Origin: an uncultured Methanomassiliicoccales archaeon
Lineage (GTDB): Archaea > Thermoplasmatota > Thermoplasmata > RBG-16-68-12 > JAJISG01
NCBI GenBank assembly: GCA_964347325.1
Contig: CAYFYA010000004.1
Location: forward strand, 2,383-66,382
Length of the DNA: 64,000 nt
Reading direction: 5' to 3'
The notes below the pieces were generated by a model, which ran no database searches, was not told the DNA's origin, and worked only from the letters and a program-made list of their open reading frames with translations. Below are positions 26,243-42,497 of this stretch, in pieces (within the stretch, counting starts at the first letter, position 1; every line of letters begins with the position of its first letter). The position numbers and the translations under genes are program-made.

Positions 26243-26251
26243 TTTTTTAAG
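26243..26251 (+). promoter_or_regulatory. TATA-like box (TTTTTTAAG) upstream of the DnaA-like gene
   Basis: It lies about 25 nt before the TTG at 26272 and about 37 nt before the GTG at 26284. This suggests a leaderless or short-leader transcript. Confidence 0.4.
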
Positions 26252-26271
26252 AACGCCCCGGAGTTCTTTCG

Positions 26272-28218
26272 TTGAGGGCTTTCGTGATCAAAGACCTGGA
26301 ACTCCCTGAAGGGAAAGCCATCAAGGTCGCGAAGGGAGGGCCGGAAGCCCTGCGGAAGGTTCTTACACTATTGAGCAAGCGTGGCTTCACAGGATATATC
26401 AAGATTGAGTCGAAAGCGGGCAGGGGGACTGCGTTTCTGGTCCTGAGAGACGGCAGCCGGGCCATGACCCTCTACTACGGGCCCGACGGCTTCCTCACGG
26501 GTAAGGCGGCTCTCCCTGGCTTCAAGGATCTTGCCAAGGACAAGGACACCCTGATAGAGGTCCACACGAACCAGACTCTTGAGCCCTTGCTGGAGAGCCT
26601 CCCGAAGGGCCGGGGGAAACCTTCGCCTCCAGGGATGGGCGCTTTCAAGCGGAAGCTGGAGGAGTGGAAGGCCCAGGGACACGATGTAGCAGAGCTGGAA
26701 GGCAAGATGGGTCAGAGCCTGTCAAAGGTCATCAAGGCGTTTGCGGAATACAAGGAAGGGATGAAGGCACGGGAGGAGGACGAGGCAGAGGGCGCCAAGC
26801 TCATCGAGGAAGCCAAGTTCGAGCTTCTAACAGAGGAGCCTAAAGAGGAGCCGGAAGTAGCGGTCCCGGAGAAAGCAACGGCTCCGAAACGCAAGAAACC
26901 TCGCGCAAGGAAGAAGTCGACCACGAGGAAGGAGGCCGCAGAGAAGAAACCGGCGGCAAAGGAAGCCGTGGAGGCTGAGGCGGTCTCTAGGGCCCCAACT
27001 TCTCCTGACACGGGCATGCAGGACAGATACACCTTCGACACGTTCATCGTGGGAGACAGCAACCGTTTCGCCCACGCTGCCTGCACGACGATCTCCGAGG
27101 GCTCCGTTGATCCGTACAGCCCCCTGTTCCTGGTCGGTGGACCAGGACTCGGCAAGACACATCTCCTCCACGCCCTCGCCCGGCAGTTCGAGAAGAGGAA
27201 CCCGGACGCAAAGGTAACATACCTAACTGCCTCGCAGTTCCGGGACGAGATGGAGAAGGCGTCGAATGGGGGTCATTTGGCGGACTTCCGCAAGTCCCTC
27301 CTGGAGAAGGACATTCTTCTCCTGGACAATGTGCAGGATCTCGAGGGCAAGCGGAAGGTTCAGGAGGAGATCTTCTCGCTCTTCGAAGACTTCCATCAGA
27401 AGGGTAAGCCGATAGCCCTAGCGGCCGATCGCCGTCCCTCAGAGATGAGCGGCCTCGACTCTCGGCTGATCTCCAGGTTCGAGTCCGGTCTGGTTGCAGA
27501 CCTCCAGCCTCCCAACCCCGAGATAAGAATGGGCTTCCTACGAGGTCGGTTAGACGCCAGAGGGGTCTCCATCCCCGAGAGGGTGACGAAGTACCTTGCC
27601 GACAGGTATACCTTCGACCTACGAGAGCTGGAGGGAGGGTTGAACAAGGTCCTGGCCTACTCCAAGGCCACCAACAAGCCCGTCAGCCTGTCCCTTGCCA
27701 AGGAGGCGCTTGGTGCACCGCCGCCGAGTACACCACCCCAATCGCACGCATCCCTCGCCTTCGAACCAATCCCCGGGCACAGCTACCTGTGCAGAGAGGA
27801 GAGAGGAGACTCTCCCTATCGCATGTTCGCCAAGAGGATTCGGCACGTCAAGGGACTACTCATAACGAGGACGAATCCTTCGCGGGTGAAAGAGACTCAC
27901 GGTTTGGAGGGCGCCGAGATTCTCTGGTTGACGGACAAGTCGGAGTCCTCTGAGAGTACCGTGGGCCCCGTGTTGGAGAGGCTGATGTACAAGTTGGAGA
28001 GCTTCATGATCACTGGGGGTCAGGGCATCATCCTCCTGGAGGGTGTGGAGTACCTCAAGAGTAACAACGGCTTCGAGTCCGTTCTGAAATTCGTTCGTCG
28101 CCTCGTCGACGAGATCTCAGAGAGCGACTTCACATTCATACTGACTGTGAACCCAGCCACCATCGAGATGCGGGAGCTGAAGATACTGGAGAACGAGCTG
28201 GAGGCCTACCCCACCTAG
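26272..28218 (+). CDS. Three-part protein: N-terminal uncharacterised domain, K/E-rich linker, DnaA-type AAA+ ATPase module, C-terminal DUF835-like domain
   Basis: DnaA domain III signatures: RYTFDTFIVGDSNRFAHAA, Walker A GGPGLGKTHLLHA (27136..), Walker B DILLLDNVQDLEGK, SRLISRFESGLVADLQPPNPEIRMGFL, and sensor II DLRELEGGLNKV. The C-terminus (GHSYLCRE...GLLITRTNP...ILWLTD...IILLEGVEYLKSNNGFESVLKFVRRL) matches my memory of DUF835. The start is uncertain (TTG 26272 or GTG 26284). Confidence 0.75.
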   Translation: MRAFVIKDLELPEGKAIKVAKGGPEALRKVLTLLSKRGFTGYIKIESKAGRGTAFLVLRDGSRAMTLYYGPDGFLTGKAALPGFKDLAKDKDTLIEVHTNQTLEPLLESLPKGRGKPSPPGMGAFKRKLEEWKAQGHDVAELEGKMGQSLSKVIKAFAEYKEGMKAREEDEAEGAKLIEEAKFELLTEEPKEEPEVAVPEKATAPKRKKPRARKKSTTRKEAAEKKPAAKEAVEAEAVSRAPTSPDTGMQDRYTFDTFIVGDSNRFAHAACTTISEGSVDPYSPLFLVGGPGLGKTHLLHALARQFEKRNPDAKVTYLTASQFRDEMEKASNGGHLADFRKSLLEKDILLLDNVQDLEGKRKVQEEIFSLFEDFHQKGKPIALAADRRPSEMSGLDSRLISRFESGLVADLQPPNPEIRMGFLRGRLDARGVSIPERVTKYLADRYTFDLRELEGGLNKVLAYSKATNKPVSLSLAKEALGAPPPSTPPQSHASLAFEPIPGHSYLCREERGDSPYRMFAKRIRHVKGLLITRTNPSRVKETHGLEGAEILWLTDKSESSESTVGPVLERLMYKLESFMITGGQGIILLEGVEYLKSNNGFESVLKFVRRLVDEISESDFTFILTVNPATIEMRELKILENELEAYPT

Positions 28219-28307: not shown

Positions 28308-29006
28308 ATGGGCATGATTCCGACCTACGTTATGGGTCTGGACGAGGCCCTGGGCGGTGGCATTCCTGAGGGCAACATCGTCCTCCTGTCTGGGAGCCCG
28401 GGGACCATGAAGACCTCCCTCGCCTTCAGCATTCTCTACCACAACTCCCTCTCGGGCCGCAGGGGTTTCTACATCACCCTCGAGGAGCGGAGTGAGGACC
28501 TGAGGGCCACCATGGGAAGGATGGGTATGGGCGACGTCCGTCGGGGGGACCTGTATCTACTGGACCTAGGCAGGGTCAGACTCGAACTCTCTGACGGTGA
28601 GATGCGGGGGGACTGGTTCGCCATCCTGCAGGGAATCATAGAGGATGCTGTTACCATTTCGGGCTACTCTCTCCTCGTCTTGGACTCTCTGGACTCCCTC
28701 TACGCCCTGGACGTCGCCCCTCATCCTCGGAGGCAGCTCTTCCACCTCTTCGGATTCCTGAAGGAGTTCCGAGTCACGACTTTCGTCATCTCCGAGATAC
28801 CCTTCGGTTCGCAGCGCCTAACTGAGCACGGGGTGGACTTCCTGGCGGACGGGATAGTCTTGCTCAGGCAGTTTGAGTTTGGCGAGTCCGATGTCCAGCT
28901 CAGACTTCGTTGTGTCAAGATGAGAAAGGTGGCTCACGATCGCGGCTACTTCACCCTGGAGTTCGACAACGGTAGGTTCGCGGCAACGAGGGCCATCACG
29001 GACTAG
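28308..29006 (+). CDS. Single-domain KaiC/RecA-superfamily ATPase (FlaH/ArlH-like)
   Basis: GLDEALGGGIPEGNIVLLSGSPGTMKTSLA (Walker A), ITLEERSEDL, and Walker B LLVLDSLDSL. 232 aa. Confidence 0.8.
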   Translation: MGMIPTYVMGLDEALGGGIPEGNIVLLSGSPGTMKTSLAFSILYHNSLSGRRGFYITLEERSEDLRATMGRMGMGDVRRGDLYLLDLGRVRLELSDGEMRGDWFAILQGIIEDAVTISGYSLLVLDSLDSLYALDVAPHPRRQLFHLFGFLKEFRVTTFVISEIPFGSQRLTEHGVDFLADGIVLLRQFEFGESDVQLRLRCVKMRKVAHDRGYFTLEFDNGRFAATRAITD

Positions 29007-29008: not shown

Positions 29009-30466
29009 CTAGACGCGCCTCTTGAACAACTGGAGGTATTCCAGGGCCTCGGCGTAGCCTCCCTCTTTGACGCTTGCGCTGGCCTGCTTCAGAAGCCCGA
29101 TTAGCTCGTTCACGTCACGCCCCTGCATCTTCAGCTCCATGACGGTCTGCCTGGCCCTCTTCATCTCATCTGCAATTCCCTGTTGGATCGACTCCGTCGC
29201 CTTACGTCGTGCCGTGGCGGCTAGGAGGGCTGCGTTCTCCCAGTTTCCCTTCCTCAGGGCCGCCTTCCCCTGATTGAGGACCTCCTTCACTCCGACGACG
29301 CTCACTCCAATCTGGGTCAGGTCGTTGACAAGCTCTTCCGCAGCCCTTAGGGCGTACCTAGCCTCGCTCTGGCCACTCGACTTGGAGGCCATGTCCTCCC
29401 TTGCCAGCTGTAGCTTGTCGAAGGCCTCGCCTACGCGCCCCTCCTCCAGCTGGCCAATGGCCTCCTCTAGCAGTGCCTCGGCAACGGGGTACGTCCTCTG
29501 CTTCGCCTTCTGCTCCTTGAGTTCCTCCCTCTGGACGTCCAAGCTCTGCGCTATCTGGAGGGCAACCGACTGTTCCATGGTGATCCTTGCCTGCCACGCC
29601 AGCTTAACGGCGTTCACGAGATCCCTCTTCCTTGCCCTCTGCACCGCAGCAGCAACGGCCCTCTGGGTATTCTCTACAGGCACGTGCAGCCTCTTGGCCA
29701 AGGTTACGAGCGCTTTGAGACCGCTAACCTCTCTGTGGAGCGTTGTCTGAAGGTGACGTGGGTCAGTGATCGTAGCCGCTTCACGCCGCTTCTGTTCGTC
29801 GTATTTGGCCATGATTGTTTTAACCAGGTTCCCCTCAGGGGTGCGACGCAGCGTTGAGGTCCCAGTGCGGGTGAGGGAGGTAGATCTCCCGCCCCCTTCA
29901 GGGACCCCCACGGGCTGCATCTCCAGGGGGGGATGCCTAGCCTCCAAGGATCCCGACGTCTGATCCACGAACCGGACCCCACACTGGGAACACTGAGCAG
30001 CCTCGACGGAGACGGCCGAGCCACAGACTGGACAATCGAAAATCCCTTCTTCGGCGAACAGGGCTCCACACGACGAACACTTGGAAGCGCTCTCATCTAC
30101 CTCTGCCCCGCACCCAGGACATTCAAAGGTGAGTCCCTCCTCTCCATCCTCTTCCCTGCCGAGGACGTCCTTCTCGAGAACCTCTAGCTCCAGCTTCGGC
30201 TGGTCTAAAGGTTCGTCAGGTATGTCCAGATCTAGGTCATCGAGGCCGTCTGACACCACACTCTTGGCGGGCTTAACCTCATCCCCGCCTAGGATGCTGG
30301 CCATCAGATCGTCCAGCGACTTCGAATCTCTGATGGCTTCGATATCGTCATTGGTGTCCTCTGCGTCGAAGAGAGACGTGTCTGTCCCACACTTTGGGCA
30401 GATGACCTGATTGCCCGCCAGTTCAGTCTCGCAGATGGGACACCTATTCCCCTGCTCGGAAACCAA
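29009..30466 (-). CDS. Cytoplasmic protein with three CxxC-x10-CxxCG zinc ribbons, an acidic linker and a roughly 290-aa helical-repeat C-terminal region
   Basis: The ribbons are CPICETELAGNQVICPKCG, CPGCGAEVDESASKCSSCG and CPVCGSAVSVEAAQCSQCG. The C-terminus is all-helical with repeated A/L/E/K-rich hairpin-like units. Confidence 0.65.
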   Translation of the reverse strand: MVSEQGNRCPICETELAGNQVICPKCGTDTSLFDAEDTNDDIEAIRDSKSLDDLMASILGGDEVKPAKSVVSDGLDDLDLDIPDEPLDQPKLELEVLEKDVLGREEDGEEGLTFECPGCGAEVDESASKCSSCGALFAEEGIFDCPVCGSAVSVEAAQCSQCGVRFVDQTSGSLEARHPPLEMQPVGVPEGGGRSTSLTRTGTSTLRRTPEGNLVKTIMAKYDEQKRREAATITDPRHLQTTLHREVSGLKALVTLAKRLHVPVENTQRAVAAAVQRARKRDLVNAVKLAWQARITMEQSVALQIAQSLDVQREELKEQKAKQRTYPVAEALLEEAIGQLEEGRVGEAFDKLQLAREDMASKSSGQSEARYALRAAEELVNDLTQIGVSVVGVKEVLNQGKAALRKGNWENAALLAATARRKATESIQQGIADEMKRARQTVMELKMQGRDVNELIGLLKQASASVKEGGYAEALEYLQLFKRRV

Positions 30467-30565: not shown

Positions 30566-31345
30566 ATGAAGACGGAACGGTTAAGTCGACTCGCCAGGAC
30601 GTTCCCTCCAAAGGGTCACGGCGATCTTTCCATGTTCAGAAATTCCATTCCTGGCTTGGACCGCGTCTTCAAGACCGACGTTGAGCCACCGAAGGTCGTC
30701 CTGGTCACCGGACCTCCCGGCTCCATGAAGTCCGCCTTCACCTATACTCTCATGTCCCAGTACCTCAAGAACTCGGGGGAGTTCGGGCTCTACACCACCC
30801 TGGAGGAAACCGTTCACTCCCACCTGAAGAACATGGAGAGCCTCGGAGTGGAGATCTCCCTGAAGATGCAGCTCTCCGACTTCACCGACCTGAGGGAGAT
30901 CGATCAAGTGATGGAGGAGGACGACCAGACCGACTACATCACCTTCATCGAGAAGATGATAACCCACTACAGGAAGAGCCACGGCGACCGATTCACCGTA
31001 TTCGCCCTAGACTCCCTCGGAGCCCTCTACAGCCTCCTGTCTCTTCAGGGGGACATCAGGAAAAGGATGTTCTACTTCTTCAAGATGCTACGAGACCACG
31101 GCCTCACGTCTCTCGTACTCATGGAGCGCTCCCTAGGCGGTGAGAGCCAACTTCTCGGCAACGAGGGTTTCCTGGTCGATGGCATCATCATGTTGGGCCT
31201 CGATCGGAGCAAGGGCAAGATCGTCCGCTACATTCAGGTGGAGAAGATGCGAGCCTGCAAGCATAGCATGGAGAAGCACCTTTTGGAGGTGAGCGACAAC
31301 GGCCTCGTGGTACTCGGTCCGATCTTCGATTCCTCCGACCTCTAG
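30566..31345 (+). CDS. Single-domain KaiC/RecA-superfamily ATPase (FlaH/ArlH-like), paralog 2
   Basis: IPGLDRVF...VVLVTGPPGSMKSAFT (Walker A), TTLEETVHS, and Walker B VFALDSLGAL. An alternative start lies at M23 (30632). Confidence 0.8.
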   Translation: MKTERLSRLARTFPPKGHGDLSMFRNSIPGLDRVFKTDVEPPKVVLVTGPPGSMKSAFTYTLMSQYLKNSGEFGLYTTLEETVHSHLKNMESLGVEISLKMQLSDFTDLREIDQVMEEDDQTDYITFIEKMITHYRKSHGDRFTVFALDSLGALYSLLSLQGDIRKRMFYFFKMLRDHGLTSLVLMERSLGGESQLLGNEGFLVDGIIMLGLDRSKGKIVRYIQVEKMRACKHSMEKHLLEVSDNGLVVLGPIFDSSDL

Positions 31346-31443: not shown

Positions 31444-32499
31444 TTGGCTGCAGAACAGGGAGAGGTCTGGGATCTGCTCCAGAACAAGGTCGCTGAACTG
31501 AAGGACCTTGAAAACGAGCTCAAGGAGCGAGAGAACAAGATCGAGGAGGAGCGGGCCTCAATCGGCTCCAAGATGGAGAAGATTCAGGCGGAGCAGGAGA
31601 AGCTGGCGAAGGAGAAAGCCTCCTTCGATTCCCTGCAGAAGGGCCTCGAGGCTCGAGACCGCGAGATAAGCCAGAAAGAGTCGGACATCGAGAAGCAGAG
31701 GAAGTCTGTCGAAGGCATCAAGACCGAGGCCGATGCCAAGGTAAGACAGGTCGACGAGCGCCATGAGGCCCTCCTGGCGAGGGAGGAGGAGCTAGTCCAG
31801 AAGGAGGAGGCCCTGGCCAAGGAGGCAAACGAGATCGTGGCCCTCAAAGAACGCATGGTGGTGAAGGAGCAGGAAATCGCCCAGTTCCACGAGAACTTGA
31901 AGAGCTTCGTGGAGGAGTTCTCTGGCAAGACCCAAGATTTGGCGAACCTCGAGGAGCAGGTCACCAAGGAGAGACAGGCGGTCGCCGCGGAAAGGGAGCG
32001 ACTCGCCAAGGAGGCCAAGAGGCTCATCGATCTCGAGAGGAAGATGCTCAAGGAAGGCGAACTTCCCGAGCAGCAGATTGATGTTCCCCAGCCGGAACCC
32101 GAGGTTCCCGAGGAGGTTCCCCCGGAGGCACCGCCCGAGGAGGCGGCGGAGGCCGAGGTGCCTGAGGGGCAACCCGAGCCCGAAGCACCTCCCGAGGAGG
32201 CGGAGGAAAAGGGAAAAGAGAAGAAGGGCAAAGAAGAGGAGAAGGAGGCCCCTGAGCCCGGGGACGGTGAGATTCTCTGTCCCGGTTGTGAGACCCTCAT
32301 ATCCGCTGACGCCGTCATCTGCTACGCCTGCGGTTATCAGTTGAAGGAAGGCAGTGAGGAGGAAGAGAATGAGATCCCGTGCCCTGCCTGCGGCACTATG
32401 ATCAGTGCCGACGCCGTGATGTGTTACGCCTGCGGGCAGCCGATGGGCGAGCAGGAACAGAAGAAGAAGGGGCTCAAGAAGATCCTCCGGCGGAAGTAG
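31444..32499 (+). CDS. Coiled-coil protein with a P/E-rich linker, two C-terminal CxxC-x10-CxxCG zinc ribbons and a basic tail
   Basis: TTG start after GGAAAGGTGAGG. About 210 aa have heptad-like E/K-rich sequence. The ribbons are CPGCETLISADAVICYACG (32278..32334) and CPACGTMISADAVMCYACG (32380..32436). The tail is KKKGLKKILRRK. Confidence 0.65.
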   Translation: MAAEQGEVWDLLQNKVAELKDLENELKERENKIEEERASIGSKMEKIQAEQEKLAKEKASFDSLQKGLEARDREISQKESDIEKQRKSVEGIKTEADAKVRQVDERHEALLAREEELVQKEEALAKEANEIVALKERMVVKEQEIAQFHENLKSFVEEFSGKTQDLANLEEQVTKERQAVAAERERLAKEAKRLIDLERKMLKEGELPEQQIDVPQPEPEVPEEVPPEAPPEEAAEAEVPEGQPEPEAPPEEAEEKGKEKKGKEEEKEAPEPGDGEILCPGCETLISADAVICYACGYQLKEGSEEEENEIPCPACGTMISADAVMCYACGQPMGEQEQKKKGLKKILRRK

Positions 32500-32618: not shown

Positions 32619-35600
32619 TTGGATCCGGGGGTCGATGTCGTGACGCAATCCAGAGGAGCTCGTCAGCCGATCGTCCTTTCCATTGTTCTCGCAGCTTCTC
32701 TCCTGCTTGGAGCAGTCGCGGGATTATTCGCCTTGAAGACCGCGTCTGCGTCCATAGTCGTCATCAATGGGGATTGGACTGTCTCGGGCACAGACAACAC
32801 TTACGACGGTGTCATCTTCAAGGTCGACGGCAACGTCACCATAGAGTCCGGAGCATTGCTGGAGATTGCGAACGGCGGCCTGACGTTCCTTCAGGACGAC
32901 TCCCACACCTACACCCTGGACATACAGGATGGCGGATCAGGCCACGGTTCTCTGGTATTGGAGAACAGCGTCCTAACCACGGAACCTCTTCAGATTGATG
33001 TCAGCCTGCGGTTGGAGGTCGCCGTGGCGGGGACCCTGATCCTTCGAGACGGCTCATTGGTGAAGCACCCTGGTAACATAACCTCGTCCGGAGACGCTAT
33101 AATCGAGGTCCGGGACTCCACGGTTAAGGGCTTCGACAGCGGCGAGATCGATGGTGTAGTGGCGGACACCGACGCCAGCGACGATGCACCCTCCCTGTCG
33201 TTCTCCAGCACATCTGAGGTCCTCATTGTCGACTCGATCATCAGCGGGCTCTATGAGAACAATGCGGACCCTCGTCCCAACCCCCTCTATGACATCCGCG
33301 TGCAGGACTCGGCGACTTTGACCATCATAGACTCCTACGTCGGTATCGATTATCATCCGGGCGACACGACCCATAACACAATCTCTGCCACGGGTTCGTC
33401 ACGAGTCTACATCTTCAACATGAGCCTGGATGAGGACCAATCGAGCCTAGCCCAACCCGTCGACTGGCTGCCGGCCTTCGTTACGGCCTCCAGTGCAGAG
33501 GTCTACATACACCGCTGGCTGGAAGCGAAGGCGGCCGATCGTTTCGGAAACGGCGTACCCAGTGCCTACATCGAATCCCGTGTGCTCCCTGAGGGACTCC
33601 TAGCCTACTACCCCCGGAACGGTGGATCCAACGTGCCGAGCCAGGATATCCTAGATCATCTGGGGGCCAGCTCATCCGACTTCAACGTTACAGGATCCGA
33701 CGGACGGGCCCTCATACCCCTTCTTACAGAGTGGATCAACAGTTCTGTAGACCAGACCGCCCCGAATTCCCACTTCATCGGCAACTACCGCATCCGGGCG
33801 AGCTTCGGCGGCGACGCCTCGGTCAGGAACGTCTCCTTCCAGGCTTATCCGGCTCTGGGTTCCAGCGTCAACACCGAAAGTCTGACTGTCAACATCGACT
33901 CCCTCGTGTGGCCCGCTCAGGACACGACTTACATCTGGTCGTCCACGATCAACATCGACTTCGACCTGCTTCTGGACGGCAACCTACTGATTACGGGGGA
34001 CGCAACCATCGATGGGTCTCAGCTGTTCATCCTTCAGAGCAACATGGATTCGGGTCGTCACTACATAATGATCGAGGGTGGCGGCAGCCTCACCATAACG
34101 AACGGTGGCCTATCCAGCAACCTGCCCCTCGTAGTGTACCTGCAAGATGGCGCCCAACTATCCACAGATAACGCCACTCTGCAGTTGAGCACGCCCGCTG
34201 GTCGGGGCATTGTATATGGTGAAGACTCCTCCGTTATCAGCCTCAGGGGCGGCTCCCTGGAGGGTGACCTTAAGGCCCTGGGCAACAGCGCCTTCATCAG
34301 GGAGGTTAGCCTCACCAACGCCAATATTACGTACGACACCTCGGGGATCTCATACCTCTGGGATCCCGTCTTTGAGGAGAATGTGGGACTCTCCTTCCTG
34401 AGTGACGACGGCGATGTGGGTACTCTGGACTTCGACATTAGGAACGCGACGGTGGATGAGAGCCTCAACGATAGCTTCGTGTTCCAAGGGACTCAATATG
34501 CTCAACTCACTAACGTCACCTTCGAGACGGGCGGCTTCTGGTGGACGGACAGGATTAGCGATAGTGCCAAGATCGGCGTCTACTGGTGGCTGTTTGTGGA
34601 GAGCCTGGACGCTGTGGGGACCACCGTGCGAGAGTCCAACATCACCCTGCAGCGGCTCAATCCCGTAACCATGCAGTTCTCGCTGATTCCAACTCCAGGC
34701 CCTGACGATCTGTACATGGGCAACCCCCAGCCTACTCACATCGAAGCCCCGGAAGGCGTGTTCCTCTACAGGGCCCTATCGCAGGAGCGGGTCCAGTCAC
34801 AGGGGTGGGCCAACAGCACATACCTCGCCAACGGTTCCAAAGTGGTTGACGCTACCACCTACTACGCCGACGCCAACGAGACGGTGGCCGTTGGGGGAAA
34901 CTCCAACCTGGAGGTCACCTTCACTGCCCTTACGCCAGCCTTCGAGATGGCTGAGCTGACCTTCCTCGGAGCCAATGGGACGGCGGACACCCAGCCCGTT
35001 GACCTCTCCCTGGACATCAGAGCCAGCGTCCAGAACGACGCGAGCATCGGCTTCTCGGGCGTCACCGTTCACTACTACCGGGTAGATGTGGATGCGAATG
35101 ACGATGGGGTGATGGACAACCCACCGGATGACTACGCACCCTTCCTCCTCGGCGAGCAGAACATCACGGTGGAGGCTCAGAGCACCTTCGTTGCGGCGAT
35201 ATCCTGGACCCCGGAGGATGTGGGGACTTACCTGATCTCCGCGGTAATAGACCAGGATGATCGATACCCCGAGTTAGTCGAGACCAATAACCTAATGAAG
35301 GCCACGCTGGAGGTCACTGCATGGCCTGACCTGAGTATCACCGAAGACGATGTCGATGTCACTCGAGTGCCCGTGGAGGATGGTGACACCCCTGTCCAGG
35401 TCAGGGTCGAGAATCTTGGCGTATCAACTGCCATGGGCGCGACGGTGGAACTCTACGACAACGGCAGTCTCTCCGACTCCACCCCGGTTAACATCGTAGC
35501 AGGTGAGGCTGGGTCGGTAGTCCTAATATGGACTCCCACTCCTGCAGGCAACCACACCATCACCGTCAAGGTCGACAGCCTGAACGATACGGCCGACAAC

Positions 35601-37046
35601 ACCGACTTCTTCTACGGTAACAACTTCGTGACTCTCGAGTTCGAGGTGCTGACCAAGCCCGACCTTGAGCTGCGGCCTTCCGAGTACCAGCCTATGGTGG
35701 TGGTCCGGGACAGGTCCTTCTCAGTATCTGTTAACGTCTACAACGTTGGGAGTACCGCCGCTACTGACTTCGAAGTCGGGTTGTACCTTGATGAGATCTT
35801 GGAGGAGAACCTAATCGCTACCGAGACCGGGATCGTCGTTGCTGCGGGGCAGAACCTCACCGTGGACGTGGAGGCCTCCCCCATCGCCGTCGCCGGCAAC
35901 TACACACTGATAATCTATGCAGACGCCGCGGAAGCCATTCCGGAGGTTAACGAGGGGAACAACCAGGTCAGTATCCAGTTGGATGTCGTGCCACCCGAGG
36001 GCCAGGTGTTCATCGACTCCCCCGCGGGCGGCTCGTTCTACAACCTCGGACAAACAGTGTTCGTCTCCGGCAGGGTGACCACTCCGACGGGTCAGCCCAT
36101 TCCCGACCTGAGGGTCACCGTCGTCATGAGGGACTCCGAAGGCGGCTTCCAAGACCAGAGGGCTGTGTTCACGGACACTAGCGGGGTCTTCCAGGTCGGC
36201 ATTCTACTGCCCAGTGAGGCTCCCAGCGGTGCCTGGTCCTTGCTTGCCTACACGGATGTGGAGAGCATACAGTCAGCCACCACCCCGCTGAACGTCGAGC
36301 GAGTCGTCCCATGGTACGACCAGCCAGTGCCCTTCGTGAACCTTCCTTTGTGGATACTGCTGGTCATTCTGGCGGTCTTCGTTGCCATCGCCCTGGCCAT
36401 TACCAGGTACATGCGCTCCTTTGGCCTGGGGAGGCTGGTGGAGTGTGGCGAGTGTGGTGCCTTCATCTCAGAATCGGCCTCCAGCTGTCCCAAGTGCGGG
36501 ACGGAGTTTGAGCGTGAGATGGTCAAGTGCAGCAGCTGCCACGCTTGGATCCCGGCAGACGTCAGGAAGTGCCCCGAGTGTGGTGTCGAGTTCACCACTG
36601 GCAAATCGAAGGGTGCCGACTACAAGGAGAGGATGAAGACGCAGTACCAGAAGGTGGTGGACAAGTACCGCGCTGAGGCGGCCATCGCCTTGGGCCACAC
36701 GCCATCTGAGAAGGAGTTCCAGGAGTGGTGGCGCAGGCAACCCACCTTCGTGACCTACAGCGAGTGGCTGAAGGAAGAGGAGGAGATGAGGAAGCTGGGT
36801 TCCAAGCCCTGCCCGCGATGTAAGACCCTCAACTCCCTGACGGCTACGGTGTGTCACAGGTGTGGAGCCCTGCTCTCAGAGGGCGCTTCCAGTGGACGCC
36901 CTCCCGGTGGCCCCTCCGGCGGCACCAATCTAACAGCTCCACCCGCGCCCCCCTCGGAAGGCGGAGCGGCCGCCAAGAGCAAGAAGGTTGAGCGCCCGAT
37001 CCTCAAGAAGATTGTGAAGAAGCCCTTCTCGAAGAGGAAGTCCTAG
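32619..37046 (+). CDS. Giant (about 1475 aa) type-I-like surface protein: N-terminal signal/anchor, beta-helix-like region, CARDB-like Ig repeats, one TM helix, and a cytoplasmic tail with three zinc ribbons
   Basis: N-terminal hydrophobic segment IVLSIVLAASLLLGAVAGLFAL. There are many NxS/T sequons. CARDB-like repeats include PDLSITEDDVDV...VRVENLGVSTA and KPDLELRPSEY...VNVYNVGSTAA. The TM helix is LPLWILLVILAVFVAIALAI (about 36344..36406). The ribbons are CGECGAFISESASSCPKCG, CSSCHAWIPADVRKCPECG and CPRCKTLNSLTATVCHRCG. The tail ends ILKKIVKKPFSKRKS. The start codon is uncertain (TTG 32619 or GTG 32640). Confidence 0.75.
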   Translation: MDPGVDVVTQSRGARQPIVLSIVLAASLLLGAVAGLFALKTASASIVVINGDWTVSGTDNTYDGVIFKVDGNVTIESGALLEIANGGLTFLQDDSHTYTLDIQDGGSGHGSLVLENSVLTTEPLQIDVSLRLEVAVAGTLILRDGSLVKHPGNITSSGDAIIEVRDSTVKGFDSGEIDGVVADTDASDDAPSLSFSSTSEVLIVDSIISGLYENNADPRPNPLYDIRVQDSATLTIIDSYVGIDYHPGDTTHNTISATGSSRVYIFNMSLDEDQSSLAQPVDWLPAFVTASSAEVYIHRWLEAKAADRFGNGVPSAYIESRVLPEGLLAYYPRNGGSNVPSQDILDHLGASSSDFNVTGSDGRALIPLLTEWINSSVDQTAPNSHFIGNYRIRASFGGDASVRNVSFQAYPALGSSVNTESLTVNIDSLVWPAQDTTYIWSSTINIDFDLLLDGNLLITGDATIDGSQLFILQSNMDSGRHYIMIEGGGSLTITNGGLSSNLPLVVYLQDGAQLSTDNATLQLSTPAGRGIVYGEDSSVISLRGGSLEGDLKALGNSAFIREVSLTNANITYDTSGISYLWDPVFEENVGLSFLSDDGDVGTLDFDIRNATVDESLNDSFVFQGTQYAQLTNVTFETGGFWWTDRISDSAKIGVYWWLFVESLDAVGTTVRESNITLQRLNPVTMQFSLIPTPGPDDLYMGNPQPTHIEAPEGVFLYRALSQERVQSQGWANSTYLANGSKVVDATTYYADANETVAVGGNSNLEVTFTALTPAFEMAELTFLGANGTADTQPVDLSLDIRASVQNDASIGFSGVTVHYYRVDVDANDDGVMDNPPDDYAPFLLGEQNITVEAQSTFVAAISWTPEDVGTYLISAVIDQDDRYPELVETNNLMKATLEVTAWPDLSITEDDVDVTRVPVEDGDTPVQVRVENLGVSTAMGATVELYDNGSLSDSTPVNIVAGEAGSVVLIWTPTPAGNHTITVKVDSLNDTADNTDFFYGNNFVTLEFEVLTKPDLELRPSEYQPMVVVRDRSFSVSVNVYNVGSTAATDFEVGLYLDEILEENLIATETGIVVAAGQNLTVDVEASPIAVAGNYTLIIYADAAEAIPEVNEGNNQVSIQLDVVPPEGQVFIDSPAGGSFYNLGQTVFVSGRVTTPTGQPIPDLRVTVVMRDSEGGFQDQRAVFTDTSGVFQVGILLPSEAPSGAWSLLAYTDVESIQSATTPLNVERVVPWYDQPVPFVNLPLWILLVILAVFVAIALAITRYMRSFGLGRLVECGECGAFISESASSCPKCGTEFEREMVKCSSCHAWIPADVRKCPECGVEFTTGKSKGADYKERMKTQYQKVVDKYRAEAAIALGHTPSEKEFQEWWRRQPTFVTYSEWLKEEEEMRKLGSKPCPRCKTLNSLTATVCHRCGALLSEGASSGRPPGGPSGGTNLTAPPAPPSEGGAAAKSKKVERPILKKIVKKPFSKRKS

Positions 37047-37110: not shown

Positions 37111-38796
37111 TTAGACCGATCCCAGCTCCGCACCCACGATCCTCATCATTTCCTCGGGATCCTTGAAGTATGCCGAGGCGATTCGGGCCACCTCTTTGTA
37201 GCTGGATACCCCCGTGCGACGCATGTACTCGAAGAGGTCCATCCGCCTCTTCACCTCCTGTTCCATCCTCTTGGGGGTCCAGTTACGGGCGGTCTGTATC
37301 TTCTCATAGACGTAGCTGTGACCGCTGAAGCTGAAGGTGTCGTCCGCCGGATTCCAGGTATAAGCGGAGTTGGTGATGAGTTCGTTGGACTCCGGGTCGA
37401 CGCCGATGACTTCGGTCAAAGACTTCACTCGGCGGACCATTTCGGTGCCGACCTTCACCTGAGACTGGAGCAGGACGATGTCCAGGGCTGCCACCAGGGC
37501 GCGGGGGAGGTTGATGGGATCGTTCTCCAGCCTGTGGACCATGGATTGCACGTCATCCGCGTGGAAGGTTGTATAGGCGCTCTTCCCCGTCGCCATGGCC
37601 TGGAAAACTACGTAGGCTTCTCCCCCCCGAACCTCGCCGACCATCAGGTACTGAGGCCTCTGACGAAGGGCGGCGGACAGCAGGTCGAACATGTCGATTT
37701 CACCCGCCATACGACCGCTGGCAGTTGTCCCACCGAAACCGTGGCGCGTCAGGGTGGCCACCCAGTTCTCGTGGGGAAGATTCAGCTCCCGCGTGTCCTC
37801 TATGCTGACGATCTTCATCTGAGGGGGGATGAAGAGCAGAATGGCATTCAGCGTGGTGGTCTTTCCGCTTGCAGTCCCTCCACAGATGAGCATGGACTGT
37901 CCGTTCTCGATGGCTAGCCACATGTAAGCCATCATCTCGGGACTCATGGTGAGGTTATCGATGAGGTCCAGGGGGGTGAAGGGGTTCTCTCGGAAGCGCC
38001 GAATCGTGAAGCTGGAGCCCTTCTTGGTGACGTGCTTCCCGAGGGTCGCTTGAAGCCTGGAGCCGTCGGGGATGGAGGCGTCAAGCATTGGCTGCGCTAC
38101 CGAAATGTGTTTCCCGCACCTCTGGGCTAGCCAGATGACGAAGCCGTCCAGTTCTTCGTCGGTGTCGAACTTCAGGTTGGAGGGCACGGAGCCGTACTTC
38201 CGGTGATAGATGTAGAACGGGACCTTGACGCCATCGCAGGATATATCCTCCACCTCCGGGTCGATCATAACTACGTCAATGGGTCCGTACCTCACGAAGT
38301 CCCTCACGACGTAATACATGATTCTCTCCTTGGAGACCGGATGGAGGGTTACGCCCAGATCCCTGAGGAGCTGCTGCACAGAGCTCCGGAGGTAGGACTC
38401 TCTCGTTTCGGAGTCCATCTCCTTGGTCATCTCCAGGTTCTCGATGATTAGCTCTTTCAGGACGCCCAGCAGCTCGGCTTCATCGCCGGTCAGTTTGGGC
38501 TCGATGACCTCGTAGAAGTGCTGGTTGGAGAAGTCATCGTAGAGAATCCTCACGTAGGAGTAGTTGTCGATGATGGGATCTATCTCCATCTCCTTCATGT
38601 TGGGATTCGTGACGGGTGGGATTTCCGTGATATTGCCAGCCACGATTTCCTGACGACCTCCGCCTCGCGGTGCCTTGACCTTAAGCCCCTTATCACCGAG
38701 CATGCGGGAGTACATCCTGCGCTTGAGGCGCTGGACGACTCCAATTTTGCTGGCCATCGGACGTCGACGTTCCAGCGTGATTGAAGGCCTTGACAT
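37111..38796 (-). CDS. Type IV filament assembly ATPase, FlaI/ArlI-PilB (GspE/VirB11) family, paralog 1
   Basis: Walker A CGGTASGKTTTLNAIL, Asp box IVSIEDTRELNL, Walker B/His box RQRPQYLMVGEVRGGEAY...TTFHADD. Confidence 0.88.
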   Translation of the reverse strand: MSRPSITLERRRPMASKIGVVQRLKRRMYSRMLGDKGLKVKAPRGGGRQEIVAGNITEIPPVTNPNMKEMEIDPIIDNYSYVRILYDDFSNQHFYEVIEPKLTGDEAELLGVLKELIIENLEMTKEMDSETRESYLRSSVQQLLRDLGVTLHPVSKERIMYYVVRDFVRYGPIDVVMIDPEVEDISCDGVKVPFYIYHRKYGSVPSNLKFDTDEELDGFVIWLAQRCGKHISVAQPMLDASIPDGSRLQATLGKHVTKKGSSFTIRRFRENPFTPLDLIDNLTMSPEMMAYMWLAIENGQSMLICGGTASGKTTTLNAILLFIPPQMKIVSIEDTRELNLPHENWVATLTRHGFGGTTASGRMAGEIDMFDLLSAALRQRPQYLMVGEVRGGEAYVVFQAMATGKSAYTTFHADDVQSMVHRLENDPINLPRALVAALDIVLLQSQVKVGTEMVRRVKSLTEVIGVDPESNELITNSAYTWNPADDTFSFSGHSYVYEKIQTARNWTPKRMEQEVKRRMDLFEYMRRTGVSSYKEVARIASAYFKDPEEMMRIVGAELGSV

Positions 38797-38804
38797 AGTG
38801 ACAC

Positions 38805-39803
38805 CTACAGCATCTGGAACCCAACGACGGCGATCAACAGCATGACGAAGGAGTGACGCAGGCCATTAACGATCTTCCCCGTATCCAGGATGCCAGCAAG
38901 GATGCCGTCGCCCATGGCATGGACGATGACGGCGATGAAGAAGGCCACCTGGACGTTGAAGATGATCTCCGGTATGTTCTGGGGCAGGGGACTCTGGCCG
39001 CCGAGGAGACTCCCGGAATCCCCCTCGCCGAGCTCCGCCGCCGCCTCCTCCATCTTCGGGAGGAAGGTGACGCCCAGGATCCAGATCGTTACGATGAAGA
39101 CGGCGAAGGAGATGTAGATGACCGCGATGTAGGTGCTCATGGTGATCCGACGCTCGTCCTCTGTGAGCTGGACCTCCTTGGCGTCGTGACTCACCATGGT
39201 CAGCACATCGGCCACCTCCCCGCCCGCGTCACTGGCTTTGATGATGATGGCTACGACCCTCTGCACCAAGGGCGTCTGGACCCGCTCTGCGAATAGCCGC
39301 AGGGCGTCTGTGGCGGGTACGCCCCACTCTATCTGGGCCGACATCTTCTTGATCTCGTCCGTGAGGACTCCGTAGCGGCCCTGGGCGGCGACCACAACGG
39401 CCTCTGCGAGGGTCATTCCGAATCTCCCCGCCTCCGCCACGTCCCTCAGGAAGTCGGGGAGTCTCTTCTCTATGGCGCGGATTTTCTTCTGCTCAGCCGC
39501 CATGTAGAACCCGTAAGGCCCGATGGCGGCCATGAGCCCGATGGCTAGAAAGTTGAGAAACCTGCGAATGGGATGCTCTGCGGTGTCCGCCACTCCGTCG
39601 CCGTCTAGGTCGAATCCCGTCTCGGGGTCCAGGGGCTTGAAGGAGAGGTCGAGGACATTCAGGAGGTTGAGGACGGCGATGCCGATGAAGATAACACCCA
39701 GGAAGATGCTGATTGTCTTGACGACTCGCTTCTTGTCCTTCCTCACGTAGATGGCCTGGCGTGCCTCCTCGAGCTCCTTGGCCACTCCCTTCAGCCTGGC
39801 CAC
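38805..39803 (-). CDS. FlaJ/PilC/TadC-like platform protein, C-terminal T2SSF half
   Basis: LPDFLRDVAEAGRFGMTLAEAVVVAA...YGVLTDEIKKMSAQIEWGVPATDALRLFAERV is a T2SSF-type cytoplasmic domain followed by TM helices. The GTG start immediately follows the TAG of the upstream ORF in the same frame. Confidence 0.75.
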   Translation of the reverse strand: MARLKGVAKELEEARQAIYVRKDKKRVVKTISIFLGVIFIGIAVLNLLNVLDLSFKPLDPETGFDLDGDGVADTAEHPIRRFLNFLAIGLMAAIGPYGFYMAAEQKKIRAIEKRLPDFLRDVAEAGRFGMTLAEAVVVAAQGRYGVLTDEIKKMSAQIEWGVPATDALRLFAERVQTPLVQRVVAIIIKASDAGGEVADVLTMVSHDAKEVQLTEDERRITMSTYIAVIYISFAVFIVTIWILGVTFLPKMEEAAAELGEGDSGSLLGGQSPLPQNIPEIIFNVQVAFFIAVIVHAMGDGILAGILDTGKIVNGLRHSFVMLLIAVVGFQML

Positions 39804-40862
39804 CTACCTCGCCTCCTGTTCCTGGTTCCACATGACGAATATGAAGCCGAACTGGGACAGCGGTATCATGAGACCAACGATGACGTAGAGGAGGGTGACC
39901 ACGAACCCGGCCTGGCCCTTGCTGATGAGGGCCATTATTGCCATTATGACAACCAGGAAAAGAGGGAAGGCGACGACGACCGTAACGAAGCTCTCCGCCA
40001 GGAGGCCGAGGGTCTCCATCCGCTTCTTCATCTCCAGCTTGTCCTCCTTCTCGAACTGTTCGGCCTTCATCACGAAGTAGGGCTTCATCTGGCCCCCAGA
40101 GGTTGCGGTGGTCACGACCCCCTGGAGAAACTCCTGGAACTTGACGCTAGGCGATCGACCGGCTGCCTTCTTGATGGCCGTAAGGATGTCCTCCCCCAGG
40201 AGTTCCGTATCCCTGGTTATCCACTCCGCCTCCTTCGCGATCTCGCCGTACACCTCTTGCTTGGAGAGCTCTCGGAAGATCACGTCGACGGGGACCTCGG
40301 CCGAAGCCATGGCGGATATGAAGGACATCGCTCCCGTGAGCTTCCGGTCGATTAGACGGCCTCGCCGCTTCGCCCTGGATGCTGGTATGCCCCTGTAGAA
40401 GGGCTCCAGGCCGAAGTAGACTGCCTTGGTCAATAGTGCAGGGACCGTGGCGAGGACTGGGGGAAGGATGATGAAGGGAATCAGGGGCCAGCTGAGGATG
40501 GCGAACAGGAAGAACGCCAGCGTGCCGGAGGCTGCCATGGTGCCCATGGCGACCAGCACCACTGCGGCCTTCCCCATGGCGACATACTCCTCGGGGCGGA
40601 GGCGCATGTGGGCCTTGAGGAGATCCTCCTCCAGGTCCTCGTCGACCTTACCCTTGCTGGTGCCACCCATAAGCCTCCAAGCAAGCTGCTGGAAGGGCGA
40701 CAAGCTGAGGTAGCTCGGCTTCGCTCCTGCCGCTAGCCTCACCAAGTGGGGTGTAGACCTCTTCTTGACGGTCTGCTGCGTCGCCCTGACCTCGGCCTCT
40801 CGGCGAGCTTCCAGCCTGTCCAAGACGCTGCTGGCCTCACCCCCCAAGGAGGTCACCTCCAT
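39804..40862 (-). CDS. FlaJ/PilC/TadB-like platform protein, N-terminal T2SSF half
   Basis: AMSFISAMASAEVPVDVIFRELSKQEVYGEIAKEAEWITRDTELLGEDILTAIKKAAGRSPSVKFQEFLQGVVTTATSGGQMKPYF is the FlaJ/PilC signature. The ATG at 40862 gives a 26-nt overlap with the upstream ATPase. The track start at 40994 lies inside that ATPase gene. Confidence 0.75.
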   Translation of the reverse strand: MEVTSLGGEASSVLDRLEARREAEVRATQQTVKKRSTPHLVRLAAGAKPSYLSLSPFQQLAWRLMGGTSKGKVDEDLEEDLLKAHMRLRPEEYVAMGKAAVVLVAMGTMAASGTLAFFLFAILSWPLIPFIILPPVLATVPALLTKAVYFGLEPFYRGIPASRAKRRGRLIDRKLTGAMSFISAMASAEVPVDVIFRELSKQEVYGEIAKEAEWITRDTELLGEDILTAIKKAAGRSPSVKFQEFLQGVVTTATSGGQMKPYFVMKAEQFEKEDKLEMKKRMETLGLLAESFVTVVVAFPLFLVVIMAIMALISKGQAGFVVTLLYVIVGLMIPLSQFGFIFVMWNQEQEAR

Positions 40863-42468
40863 TGGCTTCCAGGGTCTTCGCACTGGCCCAACCCATCTCC
40901 CTTCGGACCCTCGAGACGGTCTCCTCTGGGTATTGGTAGTAGCCGACAACCACTTTGGAGATGTCACGGTAGTCCATGATGTCCTTTTCCACAAGGTACC
41001 TGAGCATGTCCACCCGGCGCTGGAACTCCTCGTCCATCTCCTCGTGCGTCAGGTTCTTCATCTCCATGATTTCGTCGAAGAGGAAGCTGTGACCCTTGAA
41101 GGTGAAATCATCCGTCCTCTGGTCCCACTCGTAGACCGTGTTCGTGATTAGCTCGTTGGTCTCTGGCTCAAAACCGACTAGCTCCACAATCTGCTTGATC
41201 CTTCGGACGATGTTGGTCCCAACCCTGACCTGGGTCTGGACTATGACGAAGTTCAGAGCCGTCAGGAGGATACGAGGTGTGTTTATGGGCGGGTTCTCCA
41301 GCCTGTTGACCATGGACTTGACACTGTCGGCGTGCATGGTGCTCATGGTCGGGTGTCCCGTGGCCATGGCCTGAAACATGGTGTAGGTCTCCTTGCCGCG
41401 GACCTCGCCAACAATGATGTAGTTCGGCCTCTGCCGTAGGGCCGCCCGGACCAGGTCGTACATGTCTATCTCACCCGGTGCCTTCCCGTCGGCCCCCCGC
41501 TCCCCCGTGCCGCTGCGAGTACTCCCTGGTATCCAGTTCTCGTGGGGGAGGTTGATTTCACGCGTGTCCTCAATGCTTACGATCTTCGCTCCGGGACGGA
41601 TGAACAGGGCGGCGCTATTCAGGGAGGCAGTCTTCCCGGCGGCGGTACCTCCACAGACCATCATCGACTTGCCATGCTCTATAGCCAGCCAGATATAGGC
41701 CAACATCTCGATGGAGGCAGTGTTGAACTTGATGAGCTCCACGGGGGTGAAGGGCTTCTCCTTGAAGCGTCGGATGGTGAAGCTGGAGCCCCGGGTAGTC
41801 ACCTCGCGGGCGTAGGTCGCCTGGACCCGGTGGCCCTCTTGGGTCGTCCCGTCCAGGATGGGATTCGCCACAGAGATCGACTTCCCACACCTCTGCCCAA
41901 GGCTGATGACGAAGGAGTTCAACGATTCGTCATCGTCAAACATCACCGTCGTCTTGATGGACTCGTACTTCTGGTGGAAGACGAAGATGGGGACCTTGAC
42001 GCCGTCGCAGCTCACGTCCTCGATCTTGTAGTCGTTGAGGATGACGTCACACGGCCCGTAGCCGACGAAGTCTCGGACGATGTAGTAGATTACCTTGTTC
42101 TTAGACCGGTCATCCAGACCGATGTCCCGGGACTTCACGAAGCTCTCCACGCTCTCCCGGAGGTACTCCTCCTTGTCCTTGAGGCTCTGAGCGTGGAAGC
42201 TGTATGACAGAGTCCTGACCAAGGAGTCCTTCAAGAGGTCAAGAAGCTCCGTCTCCCGGCGATTCAGTTGAGGTTCCCAGGTCTCGTAGACGTACTCGCT
42301 GTCCGTCTTGTAGAAGAGCACCCTCACGTAGCTGTAGGGAGCCTTGATGGGGTAAATCTCCACCTCCTCGACGTTCTCCTCCGTCACGGGTGGCACGGGT
42401 GTAAGCTGCGATCCTCGGCCAGGGATCCAGACGGCCCCCTTCTGCATGGCCCCCTTTGGTAGCTTCAC
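40837..42468 (-). CDS. Type IV filament assembly ATPase, FlaI/ArlI-PilB family, paralog 2
   Basis: Walker A CGGTAAGKTASLNSAAL, IVSIEDTREINL, and RQRPNYIIVGEVRGKETY...STMHADS. GTG start at 42468, with an alternative ATG at 42447. Confidence 0.88.
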   Translation of the reverse strand: MKLPKGAMQKGAVWIPGRGSQLTPVPPVTEENVEEVEIYPIKAPYSYVRVLFYKTDSEYVYETWEPQLNRRETELLDLLKDSLVRTLSYSFHAQSLKDKEEYLRESVESFVKSRDIGLDDRSKNKVIYYIVRDFVGYGPCDVILNDYKIEDVSCDGVKVPIFVFHQKYESIKTTVMFDDDESLNSFVISLGQRCGKSISVANPILDGTTQEGHRVQATYAREVTTRGSSFTIRRFKEKPFTPVELIKFNTASIEMLAYIWLAIEHGKSMMVCGGTAAGKTASLNSAALFIRPGAKIVSIEDTREINLPHENWIPGSTRSGTGERGADGKAPGEIDMYDLVRAALRQRPNYIIVGEVRGKETYTMFQAMATGHPTMSTMHADSVKSMVNRLENPPINTPRILLTALNFVIVQTQVRVGTNIVRRIKQIVELVGFEPETNELITNTVYEWDQRTDDFTFKGHSFLFDEIMEMKNLTHEEMDEEFQRRVDMLRYLVEKDIMDYRDISKVVVGYYQYPEETVSRVRREMGWASAKTLEANGGDLLGG

Positions 42469-42497
42469 CTTCCTCTTGCGGTGGGTCAGCGCCAGTA

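Follow-up and report, generated by a model that had tools for sequence, protein, structure and literature searches.

We analysed a 64-kb window of archaeal DNA (64,000 nucleotides of contig CAYFYA010000004.1, assembly GCA_964347325.1, from an uncultured Methanomassiliicoccales archaeon; "the window" is this whole stretch) and focused on one gene, whose protein joins a bacterial DnaA-type AAA+ module to a C-terminal DUF835 domain. The initial annotation had placed this open reading frame (ORF) at 26272-28218, and we found it there with all of the motifs quoted for it. The AlphaFold model of the fusion protein, built from a family alignment of 64 sequences, has a mean predicted local distance difference test score (pLDDT) of 84 and three confidently folded domains. 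The features of the gene are as follows.

26243..26250 (+): TATA-like box TTTTTTAA, read in the sequence, ~22 nt before the TTG start (26272)
26272..28218 (+): fusion gene, an ORF of 648 residues from a TTG start, encoding the N-domain, helical segment, basic linker, DnaA-type AAA+ module and DUF835
26305..26601 (+): N-terminal alpha/beta domain (N-domain), residues ~12-110, AlphaFold pLDDT >90, probably a divergent DUF2226/DUF4388 (PATAN-type) domain
26635..26820 (+): helical segment, residues 122-183, with helices at 122-134, 140-145 and 150-183 in the AlphaFold model
26821..27012 (+): disordered K/R/E/A/P-rich linker, residues 184-247, from pLDDT <50 and composition; includes KRKKPRARKK
27013..27717 (+): DnaA-type AAA+ module, residues 248-482 (domain IIIa plus lid IIIb), from Pfam, NCBIfam, PDB search and superposition
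27766..28215 (+): DUF835 domain, residues ~500-648, alpha/beta fold without a P-loop, from a PF05763 match and pLDDT >90

The small separate N-terminal domain that the initial annotation described is a confident fold in the model (pLDDT >90) and is probably PATAN/DUF2226-type. The linker of about 140 residues described with it exists, but it has two parts, helical over residues 122-183 and then disordered and basic over residues 184-245. An alternative GTG start at 26284 would give a protein of 644 residues with the N-terminus MIKDLELPEGK, as in the homologs. The fusion gene and the PGK gene diverge from an intergenic region of 88 bp that contains TTTTTTAA, a candidate promoter. Cumulative GC skew along the window reaches a shallow maximum of small amplitude at the fusion gene (~26000-28000), probably due to changes of gene strand.

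Identity of the AAA+ module and of DUF835

Archaea initiate replication with Orc1/Cdc6, and DnaA is the bacterial initiator. We found that residues 250-409 of the fusion protein match Bac_DnaA (Pfam PF00308) over profile positions 2-161 of 162 (E=4.5e-51, 173.7 bits vs a cut-off of 23). The DnaA equivalog model (NCBIfam TIGR00362) scored 270.3 bits, below its cut-off of 343.9, and aligned residues 213-480 with profile positions 68-335 of 437 only, which leaves domains I and IV unmatched. The best PDB sequence match was Bacillus subtilis DnaA (8btg, E=2e-64), with Thermotoga and Aquifex DnaA next; Hda followed at ~1e-10 to 1e-11 and RuvB at 0.008. The modelled module superposed on B. subtilis DnaA domain III with a template modelling (TM) score of 0.91, a root-mean-square deviation of 2.0 Å and 44% identity. 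Hence, the bacterial DnaA-type AAA+ module that had been read at residues ~250-480 is well supported by profile, sequence and structure.

Other families lay further away. The Hda model (TIGR03420) scored 110.2 bits, below its cut-off of 194.8, and the module gave weak matches to Hda_lid, IstB_IS21 (33 bits) and the PHROG family 'DnaC-like helicase loader'. Orc1/Cdc6 had no match in the Pfam or NCBIfam lists or among PDB chains at E ≤0.01. The helix-turn-helix (HTH) domain IV is missing, as the initial annotation had stated: Bac_DnaA_C had no Pfam match in the fusion protein at E up to 0.1, and the C-terminus is DUF835 instead. The domain IV signature DH[ST][ST]V was found in the bacterial comparison loci and not in the archaeal ones, and the Pfam scan of the fusion protein gave no match to DnaA_N (domain I).

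We aligned 62 archaeal modules with 38 bacterial DnaAs and with E. coli DnaA, Hda and DnaC, and built neighbour-joining (NJ) trees from Kimura distances with 100 bootstraps; the bacterial sample is biased, as the genome scan used the pattern PGLGKTHLL. The archaeal and bacterial DnaA modules grouped against E. coli Hda and DnaC in 83/100 bootstraps, and mean distances were 1.04 between archaeal and bacterial modules, 0.86 among bacterial ones, 2.16 to Hda and 2.83 to DnaC. Hence, with no Orc1/Cdc6 match and 83/100 bootstraps on the DnaA side, the module is placed with DnaA proper, well ahead of Hda and DnaC/IstB and not closer to Orc1/Cdc6 or another archaeal AAA+ clade. Monophyly of the archaeal modules was recovered in only 39/100 bootstraps, the NJ trees resolved neither the deep order nor the bacterial donor, and the tree was poorer when truncated and degenerate sequences were added. 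We therefore draw no conclusion about the donor or a single origin from it. Most likely, the module came from a bacterial DnaA by horizontal transfer.

The call of a C-terminal DUF835 domain held as well: PF05763 matched residues 516-643 over profile positions 9-136 of 136 (E=1.8e-25), with 89.8 bits vs a gathering threshold of 33.1. The domain was modelled as a compact alpha/beta fold, and no P-loop occurs in residues 483-648. Galperin et al. 2018 (PMC5847659) list DUF835 as an inactivated KaiC ('iKaiC'), which the REC-DUF835 response regulators of Methanomicrobia and Thermoplasmata have as their output domain. In our comparison of DUF835 with a neighbouring KaiC (hhalign), the Walker A and Walker B positions fell in register with E=0.14, which is not significant, and the top PDB match of the DUF835 profile was the KaiC-like FlaH (4yds) with E=0.062, also not significant. 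The fusion protein resembles the REC-DUF835 regulators in having C-terminal DUF835 as a presumed output or coupling domain; its switch module is a DnaA-type AAA+ ATPase, not a phospho-receiver (REC).

Residues kept and replaced in the AAA+ module

In the window protein, Walker A, the sole P-loop, lies at residues 289-296, Walker B at D352-N353, sensor I at D386, Box VII at R398 and R402, and sensor II at R451. Among 120 homologs, near-invariant positions (E. coli numbering) are K178/T179, D235, D269 (sensor I), R281 and R285 (Box VII and the arginine finger), L290 (AID-2) and R334 (sensor II). The Walker B pair D-D is kept in 115/120 family members, and the arginine finger and sensor II in all of them. 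The initiator-specific motif (ISM) region has the same length as in bacterial DnaA.

Residues that contact single-stranded DNA (ssDNA) fared differently. At the position of E. coli V211, 38/38 bacterial DnaAs have I, V or L; the family, which falls into two clades described below, has A, E, N or R in clade A and Q or E in clade B. Position 246 is T or S in 36/38 bacterial DnaAs vs V, I, L or A in the fusion family (V in the window protein). K243 is retained in the window protein and is variable, partly kept, across the family, and E204 is lost in clade B. Therefore, since the ATP and Box VII residues are kept and the ssDNA residues are replaced, selection acts on nucleotide binding and inter-protomer contacts, not on DNA contacts. 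The DNA functions of DnaA thus appear to be lost from the fusion family (domains I and IV absent, ssDNA residues substituted), which would no longer bind DNA.

The window protein itself departs further from DnaA. Its second Walker B acid (D236) is N353 (DILLLDN), a change seen in only 5/120 homologs, E204 is Ser, R227 is L and V211 is E. The claim that essentially every DnaA domain III landmark is present was therefore overstated, although the motifs quoted for it are there. Together, the D-to-N, E204-to-S and R227-to-L changes suggest slowed or lost ATP hydrolysis and a long-lived ATP state.

Asn also occupies the second Walker B position in E. coli Hda, and an Hda-like negative regulator, or a degenerate relic in which catalysis is lost and the module is a structural spacer only, would explain this residue, E204S and R227L together with the weak Hda_lid match. 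A separate DnaA-like gene in locus L093, described below, is clearly degenerate (R285V, D269E). Both Hda and the fusion protein have a DnaA-family AAA+ module without domain IV. However, similarity to Hda is far weaker than to DnaA (110 vs 270 bits; 1e-10 vs 2e-64), the fusion protein has neither a clamp-binding motif (QL[SD]LF-like) nor a PIP-box, it has extra N- and C-terminal domains, and the archaeon has no DnaA for Hda-type regulation. The D-D pair in 115/120 members, with the arginine finger and sensor II in all, and the place of the DnaA module among the best-conserved parts of the protein (43% identity between clades) speak against a relic; the latter points to selection on a nucleotide-dependent function. 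Hence, we regard an Hda-like regulator or relic as improbable.

A DNA-acting replication or chromosome factor, which would assemble on DNA with binding supplied by the basic linker or by a partner and would start or control replication or some other DNA transaction, is the reading implied by some of the automatic names, and it also has evidence on its side. The DnaA module is highly conserved, the ISM is unchanged in length, both Box VII arginines and sensor II are kept, the linker contains KRKKPRARKK, and the giant relatives described below, which carry the same N-domain, keep I/L211, K243, T246 and E204. PCNA is encoded in the same 64-kb window, and no Orc1/Cdc6 gene was seen in the window. 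This absence from 64 kb is uninformative for the whole genome, however, and known Thermoplasmata encode Orc1/Cdc6. Moreover, the fusion protein lacks the domain IV HTH, domain I, a PIP-box and a clamp-binding motif, the whole family has other residues in place of T/S246 and of the hydrophobic H-motif residue, no part of the protein is less conserved than the linker (17% identity between clades), and the neighbouring genes are KaiC, Zn-ribbon, surface and pilus genes with none for replication. A DNA-acting factor is therefore, in our judgement, unlikely.

Compared with bacterial DnaA domain III (8bv3/8btg, Thermotoga 2z4r, Aquifex 1l8q/3r8f), then, the fusion protein shares the initiator-clade AAA+ fold with its lid. 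It differs in occurring in an archaeon, in lacking domains I and IV, in the replacement of V211 and T/S246, in carrying PATAN-type and DUF835 domains, and in lying in a KaiC/Zn-ribbon cluster and not beside dnaN.

Family, domain shuffling and gene neighbourhood

We searched 5.8 billion proteins, clustered at 90% identity, and found at least 120 clusters of 612-745 residues from NCBI, JGI, ENA and Logan assemblies, all with Bac_DnaA and DUF835. A scan of GTDB species representatives gave at least 12 archaeal loci. The named fusion homologs all come from metagenome-assembled genomes (MAGs) of Thermoplasmata/Thermoplasmatota, among them one Methanomassiliicoccales MAG. Two clades were found: clade B holds the window protein and relatives at 42-72% identity, and clade A is larger and ~35% identical. 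Identity between the clades is 47% for DUF835, 43% for the DnaA module, 29% for the N-domain, 22% for the helical segment and 17% for the linker. On a 117-kb contig compared with the window, SRP54 is 86% identical and the fusion protein 52%; the fusion protein evolves far faster than housekeeping genes.

These sequences are already public under automatic names such as 'DnaA ATPase domain-containing', 'DUF835 domain-containing' and 'DnaA/Hda family'. Several (P0006, P0030, P0033, P0037, P0038 and others) are auto-named 'chromosomal replication initiator protein DnaA', though they lack domains I and IV. Our literature searches, whose coverage left out the KaiC-hub paper of Makarova et al. 2017, returned no paper on the fusion, the PATAN-type head, the residue loss, the cluster or the giants.

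The host is an archaeon, as had been assumed: the window encodes PCNA (51604-52341), SRP54, PilB3-type T2SSE ATPases and a TackOD1 protein, and the nearest named relatives of its SRP54 (79-83% identity) are from Thermoplasmata/Candidatus Thermoplasmatota MAGs. The PCNA gene therefore indicates an archaeal replisome.

The N-domain of the window protein has the modelled topology b-a-b-b-b-b-a-b-a and gave no Pfam match at E up to 10, nothing significant against PDB by Foldseek (best E=0.066) and no match in a profile search of PDB. Its family profile found 367 representative proteins among 1.84 billion, many with two or three tandem copies. Among 35 homologous segments, 8 match DUF2226 (PF09987; best 6e-6) and 6 match DUF4388 (PF14332, now PatA_N, the PATAN domain; best 1.9e-5), and no other family recurs. 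The matches of the N-domain profile and of Pfam overlap on the same residues in P0167, which is annotated as a 'DUF2226 domain-containing protein' and comes from Theionarchaea; the gene contexts of this and a second stand-alone N-domain protein (P0169) were uninformative. These matches suggest that the N-domain is a divergent DUF2226/DUF4388 (PATAN-type) domain by a remote and transitive link. The PATAN domain binds PilB1 and PilC in cyanobacteria (bioRxiv 10.1101/2021.06.11.447907). Like the PatA-type PATAN-REC proteins (Synechocystis PixE/PixG/LsiR), the fusion protein would have an N-terminal PATAN-superfamily domain on a switch module, and it has PilB/PilC-type genes nearby; it differs in lacking REC, its homology is remote and transitive, and its pilus link is one of gene adjacency.

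Right after the N-domain, a motif L..W[KR]..G[YF]DV[ST].[VL]E occurs at residues 129-143 (window 26656-26700). Its W is conserved in 102/120 homologs, its G in 95/120 and its V in 94/120, and the motif is absent from all other window proteins.

We surveyed the architectures of the 150 best N-domain representatives, with the following counts.

N only (many fragments): 70/150
N-DnaA-DUF835: 29/150, 10 of them with a Zn-ribbon after N
N-N or N-N-N: 27/150
N-DnaA: 12/150
N-DUF835: 8/150
N-coiled-coil-DnaA-double-Zn-ribbon 'giants' (~1350-1420 residues): 3/150
N-Zn-ribbon: 1/150

A split form occurs in L093 (8001-12518), where a gene for an N-DUF835 protein of 832 residues is immediately followed by a separate gene for a degenerate Bac_DnaA protein of 661 residues, in which the arginine finger R285 is V and sensor I D269 is E.

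The giants (~1250-1650 residues) have the same N-domain, a very long coiled coil, a DnaA-type AAA+ module and, mostly, a C-terminal double Zn-ribbon (DZR). Three are placed on loci as follows.

L092:8001-12263: giant P0218
L094:10001-14182: giant P0277
L095:10001-14251: giant P0275

Further giants are P0159, P0189, P0257, P0270, P0274 and P0278; the C-terminal Zn-ribbon was not detected in P0257, and a homology search with P0218 gave 10 relatives. The giants keep the bacterial ssDNA residues and may still bind ssDNA. Their distance to bacterial DnaA is 0.85, vs 0.86 among bacterial DnaAs, 0.96 for clade A and 1.23 for clade B; this ordering suggests progressive divergence from DnaA in a direction that the tree does not set.

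These giants, N-DUF835 and N-N proteins thus have features in common with the fusion family, be it the N-domain, the DnaA module, DUF835 or the DZR type; unlike the DUF835 fusions, the giants keep the ssDNA residues and lie between POR and IMPDH genes (POR / giant / IMPDH) in a lineage of ~40% GC, with no KaiC nearby. Their C-terminal Zn-ribbons are homologous to all three Zn-ribbon proteins of the cluster at the window locus (37-47% identity, E to 7.6e-16). Hence, quite apart from the order of the genes, shared fusions place the N-domain, DUF835, the DnaA module and Zn-ribbons of this type in a single functional network.

We compared gene contexts with precomputed gene calls for five distant homologs and by phmmer searches with the window proteins against 14 archaeal loci. 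The genes around the fusion gene are as follows.

Directly upstream (-): PGK, divergent from the fusion gene, with an ortholog in 13/13 loci
28308..29006 (+): accessory KaiC-like ATPase, 232 residues, PF06745 E=4e-35, 90 bp downstream of the fusion gene
29009..30466 (-): Zn-ribbon and helical protein, 485 residues, DZR and Zn_ribbon Pfam matches, three CxxC pairs, convergent with the fusion gene
30566..31345 (+): core KaiC-like ATPase, 259 residues, PF06745 E=4.6e-34, in 10/10 loci that reach it
31444..32499 (+): coiled-coil protein with a C-terminal double Zn-ribbon, 351 residues, DZR and Zn_ribbon_3, in 10/10 loci
32619..37046 (+): surface protein with CARDB and MG2, 1475 residues, transmembrane segment at residues ~1235-1269, three cytoplasmic Zn-ribbons, in 7/9 loci
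37111..43496 (-): two type-IV-pilus-like modules, T2SSE, PilB3_C and T2SSF Pfam matches
37111-38796 and 40837-42468 (-): PilB3-type T2SSE ATPases, by Pfam
38805-39803 (-): T2SSF/TadC platform gene, after the first T2SSE ATPase gene
42498-43496 (-): ORF of 332 residues with one transmembrane segment and no Pfam match, after the second T2SSE ATPase gene

From PGK to the surface protein, the accessory KaiC gene aside, these genes form a conserved array. The ortholog of the Zn-ribbon/helical protein lies directly downstream of the fusion gene in 13/13 loci. The two KaiC-like proteins share only 24% identity and fall into separate orthologous groups. Between genomes with fusion proteins that are ~35% identical, the core protein keeps an identity of 70-72%, a housekeeping level of conservation, and the position of the accessory gene varies, with orthologs upstream of PGK in L001 and L084. 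The two KaiC-like ATPases that the initial annotation placed next to the gene are thus both real, but only the one at 30566-31345 is a conserved partner, and it is not co-directional with the fusion gene. The DZR of the surface protein is homologous to the C-terminal DZR of the giants (E=7.6e-16). Three cluster proteins share one Zn-ribbon type, and a common docking module is possible.

The region 37111-43496 looks like a duplicated type-IV-pilus-like assembly module whose membership in the KaiC system is uncertain. Pilus genes (Pilin_N, PilB3-type T2SSE, T2SSF) often come after the array, and related genes also lie near the cluster in L082, L084, L085 and L086.

The weak IstB_IS21 match (33 bits) and a weak PADLOC match to mad8 (E=5e-5 over 69 residues around the P-loop) would fit a mobile element or a defence system (an IstB-like helper or a STAND/AAA+ ATPase). 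Against this, the chromosomal site beside PGK is identical in 13/13 loci, no transposase or integrase lies nearby, and GC is 0.58-0.60 across the region with no anomaly of composition. Any such origin, or an assembly artefact, is very improbable. Defence or phage origin was rejected, with the PADLOC and PHROG matches being generic P-loop similarity, and an assembly artefact was rejected since the same architecture occurs in at least 120 clusters from independent assemblies.

Elsewhere in the window, at 21607-24082 (-), a TackOD1-domain protein (E=3.9e-39) adjoins a BcsA-like family-2 glycosyltransferase; TackOD1 is mainly known from TACK archaea and their pilus loci, and here it is in a Thermoplasmata genome. 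A tRNA of 109 nt at 43807-43915 (+) was found by Rfam and not by ARAGORN and probably contains an intron; at 24199-24285 (+), ARAGORN reported a 'tRNA-???' whose anticodon has two bases, and this archaeal tRNA is probably non-canonical or contains an intron too. An ORF of 304 residues at 19602-20516 (+) overlaps almost fully with a CBS-domain gene (19635-20483, -) and is most likely a high-GC antisense artefact, because the CBS gene is conserved in related loci.

Proposed function

On balance, we favour a role for the fusion protein as an ATP-dependent self-assembly switch or scaffold that is coupled to KaiC-like ATPases and is not a replication initiator. The protein would be soluble and cytoplasmic, with four modules: the PATAN-type N-domain, the helical/disordered linker, DnaA domain III and DUF835. 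The AAA+ module would be retained for ATP binding and for head-to-tail assembly via the Box VII arginine finger; DUF835 would connect this switch with the conserved KaiC-like ATPase, whose gene lies two genes away; and another partner, possibly the neighbouring PilB/TadC-type pilus motor, would dock on the PATAN-type N-domain. The data show the identities of the domains, the pattern of kept and lost residues, the spread of the family and its conserved gene order; oligomerisation, the lack of DNA binding and all of the partner interactions are what we infer from these features. Hence, of the initial proposal of a DnaA-derived nucleotide switch in a non-replicative role, the DnaA derivation stands, and the switch is still inference, strengthened by the loss of domains I and IV, the replaced ssDNA residues and the KaiC array.

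Several points weigh against the favoured role. The strong conservation of the DnaA module and of the ISM would fit a retained DNA-related role equally, the basic linker could still bind nucleic acid, and the giant relatives keep the ssDNA-contact residues. Homology of DUF835 to KaiC has no statistical support here (E=0.14; E=0.06), and the PATAN link is remote and transitive, with no Pfam or structural match for the N-domain of the window protein. With PGK transcribed away from it and the DZR gene towards it, the fusion gene lies outside the KaiC operon, and no pilus genes occur within 10 kb in L087. Gene order may partly be inherited ancestry, because the amidohydrolase, tRNA synthetase and PGK genes are also syntenic.

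One form of the switch or scaffold draws on an analogy. KaiC and DnaB belong to one RecA-like assemblage, DnaC opens the DnaB ring, and DnaA, DnaC and IstB are related AAA+ proteins. By this analogy, the fusion protein could load or remodel a KaiC-like hexamer, as DnaC acts on DnaB; its AAA+ spiral would open the RecA-fold ring or change its shape, with DUF835 inserted as a pseudo-subunit. Like the DnaC/IstB loaders, it would be an initiator-clade AAA+ protein that partners a RecA-fold hexamer: the module also matches IstB_IS21 and the PHROG 'DnaC-like helicase loader' weakly, the conserved neighbour is a KaiC-like RecA-fold ATPase, the top PDB profile match of DUF835 is FlaH (E=0.06), and DUF835 has been described as an inactivated KaiC (PMC5847659). 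Yet its sequence is far nearer DnaA (distance 1.0 vs 2.8 to DnaC), helicase genes are absent from the neighbourhood, our comparisons of DUF835 with KaiC gave no significant homology, the fusion and core KaiC genes are not co-transcribed, and no KaiC lies near the DnaA module in the giants or in the L092-L095 contexts. We consider such a loader rather doubtful.

The self-assembly switch could also be more elaborate. A captured DnaA engine might act as a nucleotide-timed module, in which an ATP-dependent spiral docks via DUF835 on the KaiC-like hexamer and remodels it (cf. DnaC/DnaB), while the PATAN head relays the signal to the pilus motor or to the Zn-ribbon receptors. This scheme is speculative and we give it little credence. 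If it were true, the fusion proteins would make up a new ATPase class in archaeal signal transduction and a natural experiment that uncouples the self-assembly of DnaA from DNA binding, and the ssDNA-competent giants would be evolutionary intermediates.

The fusion proteins, which have signalling-type domains and lack the features for DNA recognition, form a widespread archaeal family; bacterial DnaAs resemble its AAA+ module about as closely as they resemble each other. The giants with ssDNA residues provide a comparative series for how the DNA function was lost. If the role as a self-assembly switch or scaffold is true, the family would be a natural separation-of-function DnaA, with ATP-dependent assembly and no DNA binding, and as such helpful to studies of the AAA+ initiator clade. 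It would also give the KaiC and DUF835 signalling networks of archaea, which are little understood, a new kind of input module, and it would correct annotations as 'chromosomal replication initiator DnaA', which may lead predictions of origins and reconstructions of metabolism astray in MAGs of Thermoplasmatota.

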